23,896 nucleotides of DNA from a virus, in the UHGV virus genome UHGV-0115697; one strand, written 5' to 3'. The notes under the pieces are model-generated. The model searched no databases. It had not been told where the DNA came from and saw only the letters and a program-made list of their open reading frames with translations. Position numbers and translations under genes: made by a program. This document shows positions 53 to 20,887 of the stretch, one piece after another. How positions within the stretch are numbered: position 1 is the first letter of the stretch; every line of letters starts with the position of its first letter.

Positions 53-1654
53 TCATGGATTATTATTTACGCCTCTAATACTGCCAGCAGAAAATGACAT
101 AGATGTAGAATTAGTTGCATTAAGGAAGTTATAGGTACGTCGACTGGGTGTGCTGTATTCTCCAATGCCAAGTGCATCAAAAGAAGACATAACAAAACCA
201 TTAACTTTATCAGCCCTTATAGCTGTCATGTTAGTATTCAATGCGGTTGATGCGTGAACAAAATGAGCGTTAGATATTTGCACAGATTCTACTTTACGTA
301 CTGAGTTTCCGTACAGTGCTAAAATCGGGATAGATACTCCTGAAGTATTAGTTGTCTCACCAATATAAATATTACTAAGCGCGGTATTTATATGATTTGT
401 TGAAGTATCTTGTGGCTCTAAAGCTATAGCTCCAATATCATATCCTCCATTGCAAAATATATTGCTAGCTCGATTGCCACCGGCTGATAACCTTAATGGG
501 CAGCTTCCTCCGTACACTTCCACAGTGTCTAGAACAGAGTCGCTGTACACACGTATGCCACCTCCCGTTGCACGGATTGAGATATCTGATACATCGGTAG
601 CTTCGCAATAAATATCTCGAAATCTTGCAAGTCCTTGACCGTCATAGATAAACCATGTATTGAATCTCTTGCCAGTTAACTTCTCGTAATACCACCCAGC
701 ACCGCGAGTATGCAGTATGGCGTGGTTGCACCGCCACTCACCGTCGAACTGGATGTTTTCAAACTTAATACTATCTTGCCCATCATTAGTGTCACCAGAG
801 CCAAAAATATAGTTCTGACCATCGTTCAATGGTTTTATTACTGTAGTCCCTGAGTACGCCTGGTTAGCACCTTGGCCTACAAAAGTTAGCCCTTGGGTGT
901 ATCCAGGTATAGTACAAGGTGACATTCTAAGCTCACCCTTGGGCAGGATAATGCGTCGTACACCAGCATCTATAGCTTTTAATATCGCGGGTGTTTGGTC
1001 GGCAACATGCACGCCGCCGCCGTAATTTTCAATATAGTCAGACACAGGTTCTTTTTTCCAGTTGGTATCTACTGTCGGTGTAGTGGGAACCATTGAACCT
1101 GGTGTGATTTCCCCCTTGTATGAGTAGTATTCATTATTAAATTTGAATGCCTGTAGCGCAGAGTGCAATGGTGAATTGCTACCAAAATATCCAGATGGAA
1201 TAAATGGATGCAAATCATATTGCTGTAATTCAAATAGTTTTATTGCATTATCAAGCGTAGAATCTTCATATCCAACAAGTGAGGCCCCTTCAGGACCAGA
1301 TAACTCTTTCCTTAGCTGATCAGGATCATACTTCAGCACATTAGGAAAATAGAACTGCTGTGCACCATACGCATCATAAACAGCCATAGAATGGCCTTGC
1401 ACAGTTACGAATTTGGCAATCTGTCCGTTATATACAGGGTAACCAGCGGCGTTAATGATGATTGGCTGGGATACAGGAACGTGAGAGCCGTCTTCGTTCT
1501 CCACATAAACCTGAATCTGGTTTTCAGGATTTACAGGGTCAGTGTCAATTTTACCGATATAAATTTTGCCATTGGCTACGGCTTTAAAAGAACGCGCCAT
1601 AGTGAAGAGTTGCGAAGGCATGCTTACCACAACATTTGCGGTGATATCTGACAT
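53..1654 (-). CDS. Tailspike protein (P22 gene 9 homolog): conserved head-binding N-terminus, divergent receptor-binding/depolymerase domain
   Basis: N-terminal [11 protein letters not shown]...[12 protein letters not shown]...DTDPVNP...[12 protein letters not shown]...VLKYDPDQ closely matches the remembered P22 tailspike head-binding domain; GGAG SD 7 nt upstream of ATG at 1654; the track ORF extends to an ATG at 1711 that abuts a terminator T-tract, so 1654 is preferred. Rest of protein is Asn/Thr/Ser/Gly-rich, beta-helix-like, not P22-like. Confidence 0.85.
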
Positions 1655-1711
1655 TTCATTGCTCCAGATACAAGGAATCGCCGCAGCGTAGCTACGGTGA
1701 ATTTTGGGCAT

Positions 1712-1734
1712 AAAAAAACCCAGCCGAAGCTGGG
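1712..1734 (-). terminator. Intrinsic terminator (minus strand) upstream of tailspike gene
   Basis: Stem CCCAGC / loop CGAA / GCTGGG at 1719-1734 with A7 run on plus strand at 1712-1718 (= U-tract after hairpin on the minus transcript). Confidence 0.6.
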
Positions 1735-1786
1735 TCGTTGCGTTGGTTATCTGTCAGTAGTTATGTACTGGCTGAAGGATTTGTAC

Positions 1787-1808
1787 AAAAAACCCACCTG
1801 AAGGTGGG
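1787..1808 (-). terminator. Intrinsic terminator (minus strand) immediately downstream of the 322-aa gene
   Basis: Stem CCCACC / loop TGAA / GGTGGG at 1793-1808 with A6 run at 1787-1792 on plus strand; 9 nt after stop codon at 1817-1819. Confidence 0.6.
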
Positions 1809-1816
1809 TTTCATAA

Positions 1817-2785
1817 TTAGATTTCTGGTTTCATTCTTCCGAAAACCTTTTCTATTCCTTTTTCGTATTCTTCTCTTGTCTCACTCATCGCTGCGACACC
1901 AAGAAGCTTACCGATATGCTGACGCAAAGCCTTGACACCAATTTCAGAAAGGAACAGATGCAACTTATCAGATTGTTTTCCGTTCTCGTCTCGGCTGGCT
2001 CGAATCTGTTCAAGGATTTTACCTTTACTCTTTGCTAGCGGGGTATATATCTGCATGTTGGTTAGCTGCCCAAAACGAATAGGCCGTCCTTTCTCTGGCC
2101 TATTCAGGCCGTACAGTCGATACCACTCCTCGTATAGCTCATCTGGAAATTCCTTTTCATATTGACGAGCCTCTTCACGAACAAACGCTTTGAACTCGTC
2201 AATGACAGCCTGAACTTCTGGACGATAACCAGCAAGCGCATACGCAACCCCCTTAATTCCCGCCTTAGCGGAGGCATTAATAAGTCTCTGTGCTGCGGCG
2301 GCTGCCTTTAACCGTGATTGTGGTAGATCGTCATTATCTTTGGCTTCTATTAGTGCCCTACCAATATCAACAATTGCTGTAATGTCATAACCTAACGCTT
2401 GATGAACGGTTTTAGACTTCGAAGTAAGTTGAAATTTATAGGGATTTTCCATTTTTCGCTGCAATTCTAGATCTCGGTATTTGCTCATATACTGAGCGCC
2501 AAGCAGTTGATCTAAATCCCTGGCATGTTCACCAATCCCTAGCAACTGAGATAATCCAGTTTTCGTAACAACGACAGTTTTCGACTCGTCATCCAGTACA
2601 TAACATTCAGCGTCAATGCCAAAATCATCTAAAAAGTTACCACGATGAGTTGCCCTGAGAATCTTACTTTTCCATCTTGCAGCAGCTGCTTTCTTTGCTA
2701 TTTCAGAACGCTGCTCTTTAGTCAGCGACTTTGCGCGAGCGATCCCGCCCTTAGCTTTCCCTTCGCCACTTTTCTTTTCAGTCAT
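1817..2785 (-). CDS. Hypothetical 322-aa soluble Lys/Glu/Ala-rich protein with basic N-terminus (accessory/moron gene in the position of P22 ant)
   Basis: ATG at 2785 preceded by AAGGTG SD; track ORF extends upstream from a TTG. N-terminus MTEKKSGEGKAKGGIARAKSLTKEQRSEIAKKAAAARW; no confident family match from memory (weak recollection of P63C-domain-like N-termini). Same orientation as tailspike; looks AT-rich. Confidence 0.6.
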   Translation of the reverse strand: MTEKKSGEGKAKGGIARAKSLTKEQRSEIAKKAAAARWKSKILRATHRGNFLDDFGIDAECYVLDDESKTVVVTKTGLSQLLGIGEHARDLDQLLGAQYMSKYRDLELQRKMENPYKFQLTSKSKTVHQALGYDITAIVDIGRALIEAKDNDDLPQSRLKAAAAAQRLINASAKAGIKGVAYALAGYRPEVQAVIDEFKAFVREEARQYEKEFPDELYEEWYRLYGLNRPEKGRPIRFGQLTNMQIYTPLAKSKGKILEQIRASRDENGKQSDKLHLFLSEIGVKALRQHIGKLLGVAAMSETREEYEKGIEKVFGRMKPEI

Positions 2786-2877
2786 AATGCAAGCACCTTT
2801 GTTGTTATGTATGCTTGCATTATATACACTGTACACACATACAAGCAAGCATAAAACTAAAACAAAATGCTTGCATT
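2786..2877. promoter_or_regulatory. Divergent intergenic control region with four ATGC-NN-GCAT operator-like palindromes
   Basis: aATGCAAGCAc (2786-2796), ATGCTTGCAT (2811-2820), aaGCAAGCAT (2843-2852), ATGCTTGCAT (2867-2876); arranged as two pairs with about 24-bp centre spacing; TATATA at 2821-2826 between them. Confidence 0.45.
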
Positions 2878-2945
2878 ACAACCGCGCTACTCCAACTACA
2901 CATTATCATCTGGTATCCTGCTCAAAACTAAGGAGTGGCTACTCA

Positions 2946-3584
2946 ATGAAAAAAATAGATATATATAGCGATACATCAGCCTATGTCATAGGCTCATTGG
3001 GGTTTTTAATTTTTTTTGTTTGGCAGTACCAGTCACTATCTCCAGGATGGCGATTTTTGGGGATGTCTTTGATATCACTTGGTGCAGGAATAGCAACGCA
3101 GGTGTTGATGTATCTCTTTAATGGATGGCTCTCAAAAAGAGTTGAGAAAAAAAGAGCTACTTCAATATGTAGAAGCCTAGCTATTCCAGAAGACTCTACA
3201 GATCAGGATGATATTGCAAAATGTTGGCGGTATATGATTGCAAGATACTCAAATGAGTTACTGGCAAACAGACTGTCCGACTTAATCGGGATCGTAGTTA
3301 CCTCTGTTGGAACAATCATCAGTATAGGGATATCAATTTGGTATGTCGGGATGATTGTCTATTTTGTTTGGAATAGAGACTTCAATGAACCTTCCCTTCT
3401 TTTTATACCTTTATTTTTCAGGGTATTAGCATTCATATGTGAGTTATTGCTCTCTTTTTTCTGCAATGTTTTGTTCAACAGATACCCAGGTGAAGCAAGA
3501 AAGTTTAATAAAAACTATGATGAGTTAAGGAGAACAGATCCTTTTCTATCAAGCAAAGAGTTCCGCGATTCCATTCGCAATTAA
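2946..3584 (+). CDS. Hypothetical 212-aa integral membrane protein (~4 predicted TM helices); candidate superinfection-exclusion-type moron; only plus-strand gene in window
   Basis: ATG at 2946 with AGGAG at 2931-2935; hydrophobic segments AYVIGSLGFLIFFVW, FLGMSLISLGAGIATQVLMYLF, LIGIVVTSVGTIISIGISIWYVGMIVYFVW, LLFIPLFFRVLAFICELLLSFFCNVLF; charged loop and tail; AT-rich; sits where P22 has sieA. Confidence 0.6.
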   Translation: MKKIDIYSDTSAYVIGSLGFLIFFVWQYQSLSPGWRFLGMSLISLGAGIATQVLMYLFNGWLSKRVEKKRATSICRSLAIPEDSTDQDDIAKCWRYMIARYSNELLANRLSDLIGIVVTSVGTIISIGISIWYVGMIVYFVWNRDFNEPSLLFIPLFFRVLAFICELLLSFFCNVLFNRYPGEARKFNKNYDELRRTDPFLSSKEFRDSIRN

Positions 3585-3605
3585 CAACATCCATGACATC
3601 AACCC

Positions 3606-5402
3606 TTAGCGATCAGTTGCATCATTGGCAAGTATTGGTCTGATGGCGTTTGCGGCGTTATTCAGCGCTCTTTCATAAGCTGGCGTTCCAGCTTTAGTGT
3701 TTGCCAAACGAAGAAGCATATTCCTTGCGGCTTTGGACTCATACAAACGCATCATTGCACCAAAACCAGCCTCAAGCCCCATTGATACACCAAGAGTCGC
3801 AGTTGCGCCAATCGTCCTTATCCTGTTGGCTTGCGATTGCCCCGTCTGAGTTACTACATTTGCGGTGTCTGACCTTGCTGTTTGCTGTAGAACTTCATGA
3901 AGAGCATCAAGCTCTTTCATGTGCTTTCCAGAAAAAATAGTGTTGTAAATTTCACCGCCTGACTGAGATTTCAGCTTATTAACTTCAGTGATGAACTTGG
4001 CTGGAGAGTCACCGGCCTTTTCCGCTATTTTGCTGACGTAAGCTGCACGCATAGCATCTTTCCCTTTATCATCCAGTGCGCTCCAGATTCGTTTCACGTC
4101 AGATGGTTTTCTGCTTAATACAACGGTATTTATAAGTTCAGGACTGGCTTCACTGCTTGCCTTGTTGAGCTTGTTAGCAATGTTTTTATTAAGCACCTTA
4201 TTATAAACGTTTGCATAATCGGAATTTGCTTTAAGGTATTTTGCTGCGTCTGATGCACCGAGGTTTTTAGCAACTGCGTTACGAAGGTCTTTTGACATTG
4301 CATTCTCTACCATATTGGTAGCTGCTTTTGCCTGGTTGGGGAAGACCATAGCATCTCCCTGAACATTAGATCTAAATGCTGTTCTGTGCTGACGCAAGAG
4401 ATCAAACGTAACATCCAAATCAGTTGCAGGGTTTGCTAATTCTTCACGTAGGTTACGCAAGGATGTAAGCAGGCTTTGATTGGCAGACGTCCCAAGCCGT
4501 TCCTGTCTTGCGATCGCTGTATTCAGAGCATTCATGGTATTTGTGGTATCAACTGCGGCATTACCCATTTTATTGGTGACGTCATTGATAACAGCGCCAG
4601 CGGCATCCTTCCGCCCCCTTAACGTGGTGGTCAGAGATTTCACCACATCATCAGGGTTATACTCACCAAAACGGTCAAAATAATTGCTTACCAGTTTACT
4701 ACGCGTTGCATATTGCTCCGCTCGCTTTGAGCCTGTCCCGAGCAAAGCACCCTCGGCATCCTGAGTAAGGCCACGAGTGAAAGCATTTTTCGGCGGGATA
4801 ACATCAGATGTCATTGGTGTCACGCCCATCGATTCTGATGTGGCAATTTTCTTCGCCACTTCTGGCGCAATATCACCTTTTATAGCCGTTATTCCACGCC
4901 CTATTCCCTTTGCTGCTGCGGAAAGAAGACCCTGTGCGCCCAGGTTAACAACGGCGTTTTTTGCCGCGTTTTCGGTAAAATCACCTTTCTGGTTAGATGC
5001 CTCTGCGATTGAGCCAATCGCCATATTCCCAGCGGTGCTGATTCCTCTGGCGACATCGGCGGTCGCCCCTACGGCTTTCGCGGCTCGACCCAGTGGCAGG
5101 ACATAACCACCAATGGCCTCGCCAGCCTGGGCGTATTGGTCTGTTGGGCGGTTTATCGGACGAGGGATCTGGTAAGGGGTGCTGTCAGCACCAAAAAGAC
5201 TACCAACTGATGTTGCGGCATCAGAAATCCCCTGAGCGACATCAAATGGAATATTTACCAGGCCTCTGGCCGCTTGCTCTGCACTTTGCATGAGCGTTTG
5301 GTCCTGCCCTGGCTCATCCAAGACAAACCCATCAGGCAGTCTAGGTGATGCCTGCTTATCGTCCAGCACAAACCCTTCCGGTAATGCTACATTGCCTGCC
5401 AT
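3606..5402 (-). CDS. Ejection (injection) protein, P22 gp16 homolog
   Basis: 598 aa versus about 609 aa for P22 gp16; last gene of the conserved order 4-10-26-14-7-20-16; Ala/Gly-rich low-complexity sequence typical of E-proteins. Confidence 0.8.
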
Positions 5403-20731: not shown

Positions 20732-20807
20732 TGGTGCCGGTTAACGGATTTGAACCGCTACCTATTCACTTACAAGGCGACCGCTCTACCATTGGAGCTA
20801 AACCAGC
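20732..20807 (-). tRNA. tRNA-Thr (anticodon UGU)
   Basis: 76-nt minus-strand cloverleaf GCTGGTT-TA-GCTC-CAATGGTA-GAGC-G-GTCGC-CTTGTAA-GTGAA-TAGGT-AGCGG-TTCAAAT-CCGTT-AACCGGC-A-CCA: 7/7 acceptor pairs (one G-U), 4-bp D stem, T loop TTCAAAT, encoded CCA; anticodon stem has one G.A and one G-U. Confidence 0.65.
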
Positions 20808-20812
20808 ATGTT

Positions 20813-20887
20813 TGGCGGGACAGCGTGGACTCGAACCACGATAAGAAGGTTAACAGCCTTCCGTAATGACCTTTATACGACTGACCC
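20813..20887 (-). tRNA. tRNA-Asn (anticodon GUU)
   Basis: 75-nt minus-strand cloverleaf; perfect anticodon stem GAAGG/CCTTC with loop CTGTTAA; T arm CGTGG-TTCGAGT-CCACG as in E. coli tRNA-Asn; discriminator G and encoded CCA; one U.U mismatch at acceptor 4-69; 5-nt spacer to tRNA-Thr. Confidence 0.65.

Follow-up and report, generated by a model that had tools for sequence, protein, structure and literature searches.

A type B sieA gene and a putatively operator-controlled P63C-family gene in the ant moron interval of an Escherichia coli P22-like prophage

In phage P22, the superinfection exclusion gene sieA is located between gene 16 and the tailspike gene 9, in the order 16, sieA, hkcC, orf59a, mnt, arc, ant, 9. 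This interval, which also contains sar, has been published as the "ant moron", and its variability is documented (Villafane et al., 2008; PMC2629481). SieA proteins come in three types, which have in common the motif FxRYPxEAxxFNK; types B and C additionally have an N-terminal extension with an extra transmembrane (TM) segment (Leavitt et al., 2024; PMC10883804). Phages P22, L, MG40, MG178, and LP7 were fully excluded by the type B sieA gene of prophage HS1 (E. coli HS) when it was cloned with 106 bp of upstream sequence (PMC10883804). Another prophage gene of interest here is bstA, found in the slot downstream of cI, a solitary gene for a 307-aa abortive infection protein with a conserved DNA element, aba, over its 5' end (Owen et al., 2021; PMC8585504). 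Here, the interval between gene 16 and gene 9 was analyzed in the virus genome UHGV-0115697. The analyzed stretch of 23,896 nt, herein referred to as the window, comes from an E. coli P22-like prophage and corresponds to its late region, which is transcribed on the minus strand; all coordinates are positions in this window unless another sequence is named. The interval contains two divergent genes: a type B sieA gene for a 212-aa protein and a gene for a 322-aa protein of the P63C family (Pfam: PF10546), preceded by four operator-like sites.

Both genes occupy the same hot spot as the P22 immI genes. The P63C-family gene (1817–2785, minus strand; ATG at 2785, stop codon at 1817–1819) and sieA (2946–3584, plus strand; encoding a superinfection exclusion inner-membrane protein, as judged by homology) are separated by a spacer of exactly 160 bp (2786–2945). 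They are flanked by gene 16 (3606–5402, minus strand), beyond which lie genes 20, 7, and the head genes, and by the tailspike gene 9 (53–1711, minus strand; start codon at 1711). Two terminators on the minus strand separate the P63C gene from the tailspike gene. The first, at 1787–1811, begins 5 nt past the P63C stop codon and is formed by AAACCCACCT/AGGTGGGTTT, a perfect inverted repeat of 10 nt, with a T-run behind it. The second, at 1713–1736, is a hairpin with a T-run directly upstream of the tailspike start, in a stretch common with HK620; in that phage, the same pair is found upstream of gene 9 under the annotation "terminator (x2)". Thus, P22 and the window are alike in the terminator pair before gene 9 and in having autonomous transcription units inserted in the late operon. 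They differ in that mnt, arc, sar, and ant are all missing from the window, as are the Arc and Mnt operators, and in that the slot of hkcC is taken by the P63C cassette with its own unrelated set of putative operators. A preliminary description of this locus, made from the sequence alone, had recognized the P22 sieA/immI position, with two divergent genes, a 160-bp region with four sites, and two terminators between gene 16 and the tailspike gene, and each of these elements was confirmed.

The locus is largely explained: one gene is a known exclusion gene, the other comes from a known but functionally blank family, and both are located in a known hot spot. We consider it reasonably probable that they represent two independent back-to-back cassettes expressed from the prophage, one of them sieA-B and the other an autoregulated, possibly defensive P63C unit.

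The 212-aa protein is identical to the HS1 SieA in 211 of 212 residues, and the nucleotide identity of the window sieA to the HS copy (NC_009800.1, 325462–326099) is 99.5%. It matches the "SieA-like" family phrog_7745 (1.6e-20), and its precomputed Pfam family is PF26849 (SIEA). The identity to P22 SieA, which is of type A, is 28% (BLASTP, E 2e-24). The P22, HS1, and window genes all belong to PF26849/phrog_7745, and all follow the placement rule of the family, being located between genes 16 and 9 on the strand opposite to the late operon. Relative to P22 SieA, the window protein extends by 30 residues at its N-terminus, and like HS1 SieA it would have the additional TM segment that marks the N-terminus of type B proteins. 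By hydropathy, hydrophobic segments are found near residues 12–27, 37–58, 109–143, and 146–179, in agreement with the approximately four TM helices proposed earlier. The segment FNRYPGEARKFNK at residues 176–188 conforms to the conserved cytoplasmic motif FxRYPxEAxxFNK and can be aligned with P22 SieA. The protein had been proposed to be an analog of SieA acting in membrane-based superinfection exclusion. The exclusion role is supported by the near-identity to the tested HS1 protein; by sequence, however, the membrane protein is a true type B homolog of SieA, not an analog. It would be expected to exclude P22-like phages at DNA injection, as shown for the protein that differs by one residue. 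The sieA open reading frame (ORF) is also the sole credible plus-strand gene in the window, as had been stated previously: the remaining plus-strand ORFs of at least 90 aa all overlap minus-strand genes, and five of these overlapping ORFs were tested and gave no PHROG match, while the tested minus-strand partners do match.

Upstream of sieA, a conserved leader (2898–2935, plus strand) contains the -10-like sequences CATTAT/TATCAT and the Shine-Dalgarno (SD) sequence AAGGAG. This 38-bp leader, ACACATTATCATCTGGTATCCTGCTCAAAACTAAGGAG, is common to the window, HS1, one type A locus, and P22, and the divergence among the sieA alleles begins right after the SD sequence. Such a pattern is expected for recombination at a boundary sequence. 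No convincing -35 element was found for the sieA promoter in the window. In HS1, sieA-B follows a gene for a 213-aa protein with a helix-turn-helix domain located on the same strand, whereas the window sieA has a divergent P63C cassette as its upstream neighbor; the promoter context beyond the shared leader therefore differs between the two. Additionally, an element of the IS3 family was found beside a truncated pseudogene ORF in the ant region of HS1 (L006, 931–2732). A stretch resembling the sieA leader, TTAGTTTTGAGCAGAATACCATGATG, was found in phage 933W (L022, approximately 2805–2835), upstream of a distant P63C homolog in the nin region, which suggests that this boundary sequence moves along not only with sieA but also with P63C cassettes.

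The second gene of the interval encodes a protein that matches PF10546 with an E-value of 6.8e-14 (52.7 bits, gathering cut-off 26.1) and, over its full length, the family phrog_2384 of unknown function (1.7e-104). More than 1600 P63C-family homologs were found, including L0095 of 933W, orf23 of ST104, and gp34 of Gordonia phage Barco, and all 51 aligned homologs match PF10546. At the homologous position in E. coli prophages (L001–L003), a RefSeq protein of 322 aa is annotated as "P63C domain-containing protein" (WP_000136767.1). The window protein is rich in Ala (10.9%), Lys (10.6%), Leu (9.6%), and Glu (9.0%). Three parts can be distinguished in it: a basic N-terminal motif, KGGIARAKSLTKEQRSEIAKKAAAARW (codons 10–38, positions 2672–2758, minus strand), proposed here to be an operator-binding module; a confidently modelled alpha/beta domain (codons 42–150, 2336–2662, minus strand), which in the model possibly resembles Bro-N/KilA-N or a winged helix; and the helical P63C domain proper (codons 199–286, 1928–2191, minus strand; Pfam envelope). 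Thus, the earlier statement that no family could be assigned was mistaken for both proteins, which belong to PF26849 and PF10546. The label "uncharacterised" does not hold for sieA, whose HS1 allele has been tested, and holds for the P63C gene. The checks suggested at that time gave these two families from Pfam, and NCBIfam and PADLOC returned nothing useful for either protein. In the available descriptions of PF10546/phrog_2384, no function, operator array, or link to an N-terminal motif was found.

The sequence ATGCWWGCAT, with up to one mismatch allowed, occurs four times in the window, at 2787, 2811, 2843, and 2867. The number of sites is not above chance (4 against 5.3 expected in the 23.9 kb), but their concentration within 90 bp is. 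The sites, given here in the P63C sense and without strand assignment, are arranged around a predicted promoter. S1 (GTGCTTGCAT, 2787–2796) lies between the SD sequence and the start codon of the P63C gene. S2 (ATGCAAGCAT, 2811–2820) abuts the -10 element, covers the expected transcription start, and is the most invariant of the four. S3 (ATGCTTGCTT, 2843–2852) contains the -35 hexamer, and S4 (ATGCAAGCAT, 2867–2876) is distal, with its center approximately 41 bp upstream of the start guessed for sieA from the -10-like CATTAT of the leader. The predicted sigma-70 promoter of the P63C gene (2819–2848, minus strand) comprises a -35 hexamer TTGCTT (2843–2848), an 18-nt spacer, and a -10 hexamer TATAAT (2819–2824). 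The promoters were read from the sequence, and only that of the P63C gene has support from conservation. A consensus-based promoter scanner returned nothing in the intergenic region at its thresholds; it missed the P63C promoter because the -35 hexamer matches the consensus in only three of six positions.

The sites were compared among 39 distinct upstream regions of P63C genes. In these regions the G-C-A-A-G-C-A cores are nearly invariant and the spacers have diverged, the distances between the sites are 22–25, 31–32, and 23–25 bp in all but three regions, and the -35 and -10 elements always coincide with S3 and S2. The same layout, with the -35 element in S3, a distance of 17–18 nt, and a -10 element abutting S2, was found in Klebsiella, Providencia, Mixta, ST104, and high-GC homologs, and the -35 hexamer inside S3 is TTGCTT or TTGCAT across the homologs. 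The orientation pattern AA-TT-AA-TT of the sites is likewise conserved; in one lineage (L018), S1 has the same orientation as S2. All related P22-like loci that were examined have the four sites ahead of the P63C gene; P22 and HS1, both of which have sieA without a P63C gene, do not have them. The sites also accompany P63C genes in other slots. In Klebsiella lambdoid prophages they lie downstream of cI, in the slot of rexAB/bstA; in Mixta they follow tail-fiber genes near the integrase gene; and they were additionally found in Providencia and in high-GC metagenomic contigs. The gene orf23 of ST104, whose product has only 29% identity to the window protein, is likewise preceded by the sites, and the site-bearing P63C genes range from Enterobacterales to a Gordonia phage. 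This comparative evidence settles, at the level of sequence, the assignment of the sites to the P63C gene and not to sieA, and it strongly supports the earlier proposal that the gene for the 322-aa protein is under operator control. A terminator is often found directly upstream of the P63C cassette and another directly downstream of it, and homologs elsewhere carry their own terminators, which differ in sequence. As judged by these features, the P63C cassette is a classical moron, composed of a promoter, a gene, and a terminator, with a putative operator set added.

Two further observations concern the site region itself. The segment 2785–2878 forms one imperfect palindrome with 34-nt arms (74% complementary) and the center TGTACA at 2830–2835, in which S1 mirrors S4 and S2 mirrors S3; this symmetry is not kept outside the E. 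coli/Salmonella version of the cassette. In three Salmonella loci (L008–L010, approximately 3885–4000), a 56-bp deletion between the direct repeats TAATGCAAGCAT, belonging to S4 and S2, has removed S3 and the predicted promoter core. What is left is a cassette with two sites, preceded by TGTAAT, which may represent a naturally occurring regulatory variant.

In the family, the N-terminal motif of the P63C protein has the form KGGxARAxxLTxEQRSxIAxKAAxARW, and G13, G14, A16, R17, A30, R37, and W38 are invariant in the 51 homologs. Within the P63C family, the presence of upstream sites correlates with this motif over 12 lineages. The canonical motif together with GCAAGC sites was found in ST104, Burkholderia phage Bups phi1, Gordonia phage Barco, Paracoccus phage Pkon1, and Pseudomonas phage Lodos. 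An altered second helix is accompanied by different repeats in 933W (three copies of ACGTGCA), DC1, and E192a. Neither the motif nor the sites were found for the genes of Salmonella phage SI8, Erwinia phage Midgardsormr38, and Streptococcus phage Javan515. In these last three phages, the motif-less P63C genes are located 35–160 bp downstream of a phage repressor or regulator gene, with which they are apparently co-transcribed. In the literature searched, no description of the four-site arrangement or of its link to the N-terminal motif was found.

The motif is not confined to this family. A search with GGxARAxxLTPEQRSEIARKAAxARW yielded 332 clusters at E-values up to 1e-3 (proteins including P0135–P0281), mostly proteins of 50–200 aa in which the motif is often C-terminal or in tandem. 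Pfam scans of ten other motif-bearing proteins gave nothing informative, and the N-terminal motif alone had no match in Pfam or the Protein Data Bank (PDB). In one of the motif-bearing examples (L113), the gene adjoins a DarT/NADAR system.

The two genes of the window occur independently of each other. Among 5426 complete E. coli genomes, the sieA-B allele is rare (21 genomes), the P63C cassette was found in 46, and both were found in only two. The comparison of the interval across P22-like prophages suggested in the preliminary description showed it to be variable, as is known for the ant moron. In related E. coli and Salmonella prophages, the gene order is gp16, a variable gene in the sieA slot, P63C, mnt, arc, ant, and tailspike, with the sieA slot occupied by a type A sieA or by unrelated ORFs of 122, 134, or 161 aa. 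Thus, the P63C gene is found with other sieA alleles, without any detectable sieA, and in unrelated phage slots, and HS1 has the same sieA-B without a P63C gene. No Rfam match was found in the locus.

In P22 itself (L004, BK000583), the slot of the P63C cassette is occupied by a 121-aa ORF with an HECAH motif (2862–3227, plus strand), located between sieA and orf59a on the late strand. This ORF is missing from the BK000583 feature table and is probably the hkcC gene named in the literature (PMC2629481). In another E. coli P22-like prophage (L011, CP165539), which carries a 54%-identical P63C homolog, gene 16 is followed by 485 bp without a called gene, and the ant moron contains a gene for a ClpP-like protease (PF00574; 5047–5583) that directly follows mnt and has the same orientation.

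In the mechanism proposed here, SieA-B would block the injection of superinfecting P22-like DNA, a step performed by gp16 and gp20. The P63C unit would be self-contained, with its sigma-70 promoter, four ATGCAAGCAT-type sites, gene, and terminator. The P63C protein would bind the four sites and repress its own promoter, with S3 lying over the -35 element, S2 over the -10 element and transcription start, and S1 between the SD sequence and the ATG. Binding would occur through the basic GGxARA...RW motif, probably together with the alpha/beta domain that follows it. Such autorepression would result in a steady low level of the protein in the lysogen wherever the cassette inserts. The P63C protein is proposed as the binder because its gene is the only one that always accompanies the sites and because, within the family, the sites track the motif. 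The comparative data argue fairly strongly that the P63C cassette is an autonomous operator-controlled unit and that its product is a DNA-binding autoregulator. The position of S4, where an activator or repressor of sieA would bind, suggests that the P63C protein may also modulate sieA, although such a regulatory link is speculation.

The last and least certain step is the downstream role of the P63C protein, which would most likely act in the lysogen on incoming or replicating DNA of foreign phages, by exclusion or abortive infection. This role is weakly suggested by the position of the gene, its solitary character, and its BstA-like build. P63C genes are found beside sieA, in the cI-downstream slot of rexAB and bstA, between the repressor and integrase genes in a streptococcal phage, and between the tail genes and the integrase gene in an actinophage. 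A location in the lysogeny module downstream of a repressor gene was found for the homologs of ST104, SI8, Klebsiella, Midgardsormr38, and Javan515; in ST104, SI8, and Klebsiella it is the slot that also holds bstA, while the window copy adjoins sieA instead. Like bstA, the P63C gene is solitary, and its product of 322 aa is similar in length to the 307-aa BstA. Both proteins have a putative KilA-N/Bro-N-like DNA-binding region over about the same N-terminal residues and a C-terminal domain of unknown fold, and both genes have a conserved DNA element over the 5' end. In the case of bstA, this is the 63-bp aba element with terminal direct repeats (PMC8585504), whereas the P63C gene has four pseudo-palindromes around its promoter. 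The likeness is one of build only, as the two proteins have no detectable homology (no PADLOC match; hhalign probability of 6.5% over 23 residues).

Several results weigh against parts of this mechanism. With regard to DNA binding, the modelled confidence of the N-terminal motif is low, with predicted local distance difference test (pLDDT) values of 39–64. No significant solved structural relative of the P63C protein was found, the likeness to Bro-N/KilA-N being weak. The genes of two small, unrelated motif-bearing proteins were found to lack upstream GCAAGC sites. This is the principal evidence against the mechanism in its simple form: possession of the motif is not enough to predict the operator, and operator specificity may depend in part on the neighboring alpha/beta domain. 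With regard to the anti-phage role, six P63C family members had no match in PADLOC, the 933W homolog is located in the nin region and not in a lysogeny module, and no experiment or publication on the function of P63C/PF10546 was found in the literature searched. The suggested effect on sieA has to contend with the absence of a good -35 element for this gene in the window.

A broader version of the anti-phage role can be offered only tentatively. The P63C family as a whole might represent widespread, so far unrecognized single-gene anti-phage cassettes, acting by BstA-like abortive infection or by a block of replication, in which the portable version carries an autoregulatory switch made up of the GGxARA...RW module, as the DNA-binding part, and four ATGCAAGCAT operators. 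Such cassettes would range from Enterobacterales to phages of Actinobacteria and Firmicutes. The operator array might then double as a titrating self-immunity element during prophage replication and, in P22-like phages, might tune the neighboring sieA.

It is unlikely that the 322-aa protein is an antirepressor, or another trans-acting regulator, that replaces Ant and inactivates the repressors of resident or incoming phages while the sites keep its gene silent. The gene does occupy the immI/ant position, Foldseek returned weak matches to Bro-N and Ant N-terminal domains, and the P63C homolog of 933W adjoins roi, annotated as an anti-repressor gene. P63C was reportedly first named, by Iyer and co-workers in 2002, among the C-terminal domains fused to Bro-N/KilA-N modules in antirepressor-like phage proteins. 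No similarity to P22 Ant or Roi was found, however, either by sequence or by profile: hhalign gave probabilities of 0.1% for P22 Ant and 0.5% for 933W Roi, neither of them significant, and none of the 51 family members had a match to the Pfam families P22_AR, AntA, or Bro-N at E-values up to 1. Moreover, P63C coexists with complete mnt-arc-ant sets in related prophages, no Arc or Mnt operators are found at the P63C gene, and the P22 immI region does not contain the site sequence. The motif-less homologs, which directly follow repressor genes and are apparently co-transcribed with them, likewise fit poorly with an antirepressor of their own phage. The Ant-like function put forward in the preliminary description thus found no support from homology.

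The sites might alternatively work as RNA, which we regard as distinctly improbable for the cassette in general. Transcripts reading through from the late operon, in the order gene 16, antisense sieA, and P63C, would form hairpins that bury the ribosome-binding site and the start codon of the P63C gene, so that the gene's own short transcript would be the only one translated. The start codon is indeed part of a perfect 12-nt inverted repeat (2784–2795/2812–2823), the 121-nt region has a folding energy of -47.6 kcal/mol (z = -5.9), and the conserved AA-TT-AA-TT orientation would also agree with pairing. The variation among the homologs points to DNA sites bound by a protein. The core of S1 is substituted (TGCTTACA or TACTTGCA) in 12 of 37 correctly anchored regions, and the change is never compensated in S2; S1 and S2 of L018 have the same orientation; and outside the E. 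coli/Salmonella version the spacers have not kept their complementarity. Transcription from the predicted promoter would, in addition, begin inside S2, and the resulting RNA would lack the 5' arm. The layout is also retained where there is no upstream operon to read through: in Klebsiella and ST104, a terminator immediately precedes the cassette. In the context of the window, an RNA layer acting on late-operon read-through could still exist beside protein binding.

A similarly low probability is given to binding of the sites by another factor, either a conserved host protein or another regulator of the prophage, which would wire the cassette into its regulon. Binding by the P63C protein is, after all, deduced from comparison, and the two motif-bearing proteins whose genes have no such sites upstream would agree with a separate binder. 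The sites, however, persist with the P63C gene across Enterobacterales, Burkholderia, Paracoccus, Pseudomonas, and an actinobacterial phage, no other gene consistently co-occurs with them, and an altered N-terminal motif goes with altered sites, a missing motif with missing sites. We know of no host transcription-factor motif that matches the sites. Finally, one obligate two-component defense or toxin-antitoxin-like system, as might be expected from two genes diverging from a common 160-bp control region with S4 adjoining the expected sieA promoter, is highly improbable and close to refuted, as the cloned HS1 SieA works alone and each gene of the proposed defense pair occurs without the other, the exact pair being confined to the two E. 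coli genomes mentioned above.

The GC content of the interval as a whole is 41.1%, compared with 42.3% for the tailspike gene and 49.5% for the rest of the window. The values for sieA (36.8%) and the spacer (38.1%) agree with the 35–40% estimated previously by eye, which was overstated for the P63C gene (44.0%). The horizontal acquisition deduced from this AT-richness is accordingly a fair suggestion for sieA and a weak one for the P63C gene. Elsewhere in the window, adjacent genes for tRNA-Thr(TGT) and tRNA-Asn(GTT) were found on the minus strand (20732–20887), between the lysis genes and the gene upstream of them.

The sieA half of the locus is ordinary, being another copy of a characterized exclusion gene. 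The P63C half belongs to a family without an assigned function, whose more than 1600 homologs occupy moron slots and lysogeny modules in many temperate phages, the Shiga-toxin phage 933W among them. Three testable handles on this family are now available: the putative operator sequence; a candidate DNA-binding module of 30 residues, which is also present in hundreds of unannotated small proteins; and natural motif-less variants located directly downstream of phage repressor genes and probably co-transcribed with them. If the P63C protein is a defense factor, a common single-gene system would join those already known from prophages; if it acts solely as a regulator, it would still define a new DNA-binding motif together with the site that this motif targets.

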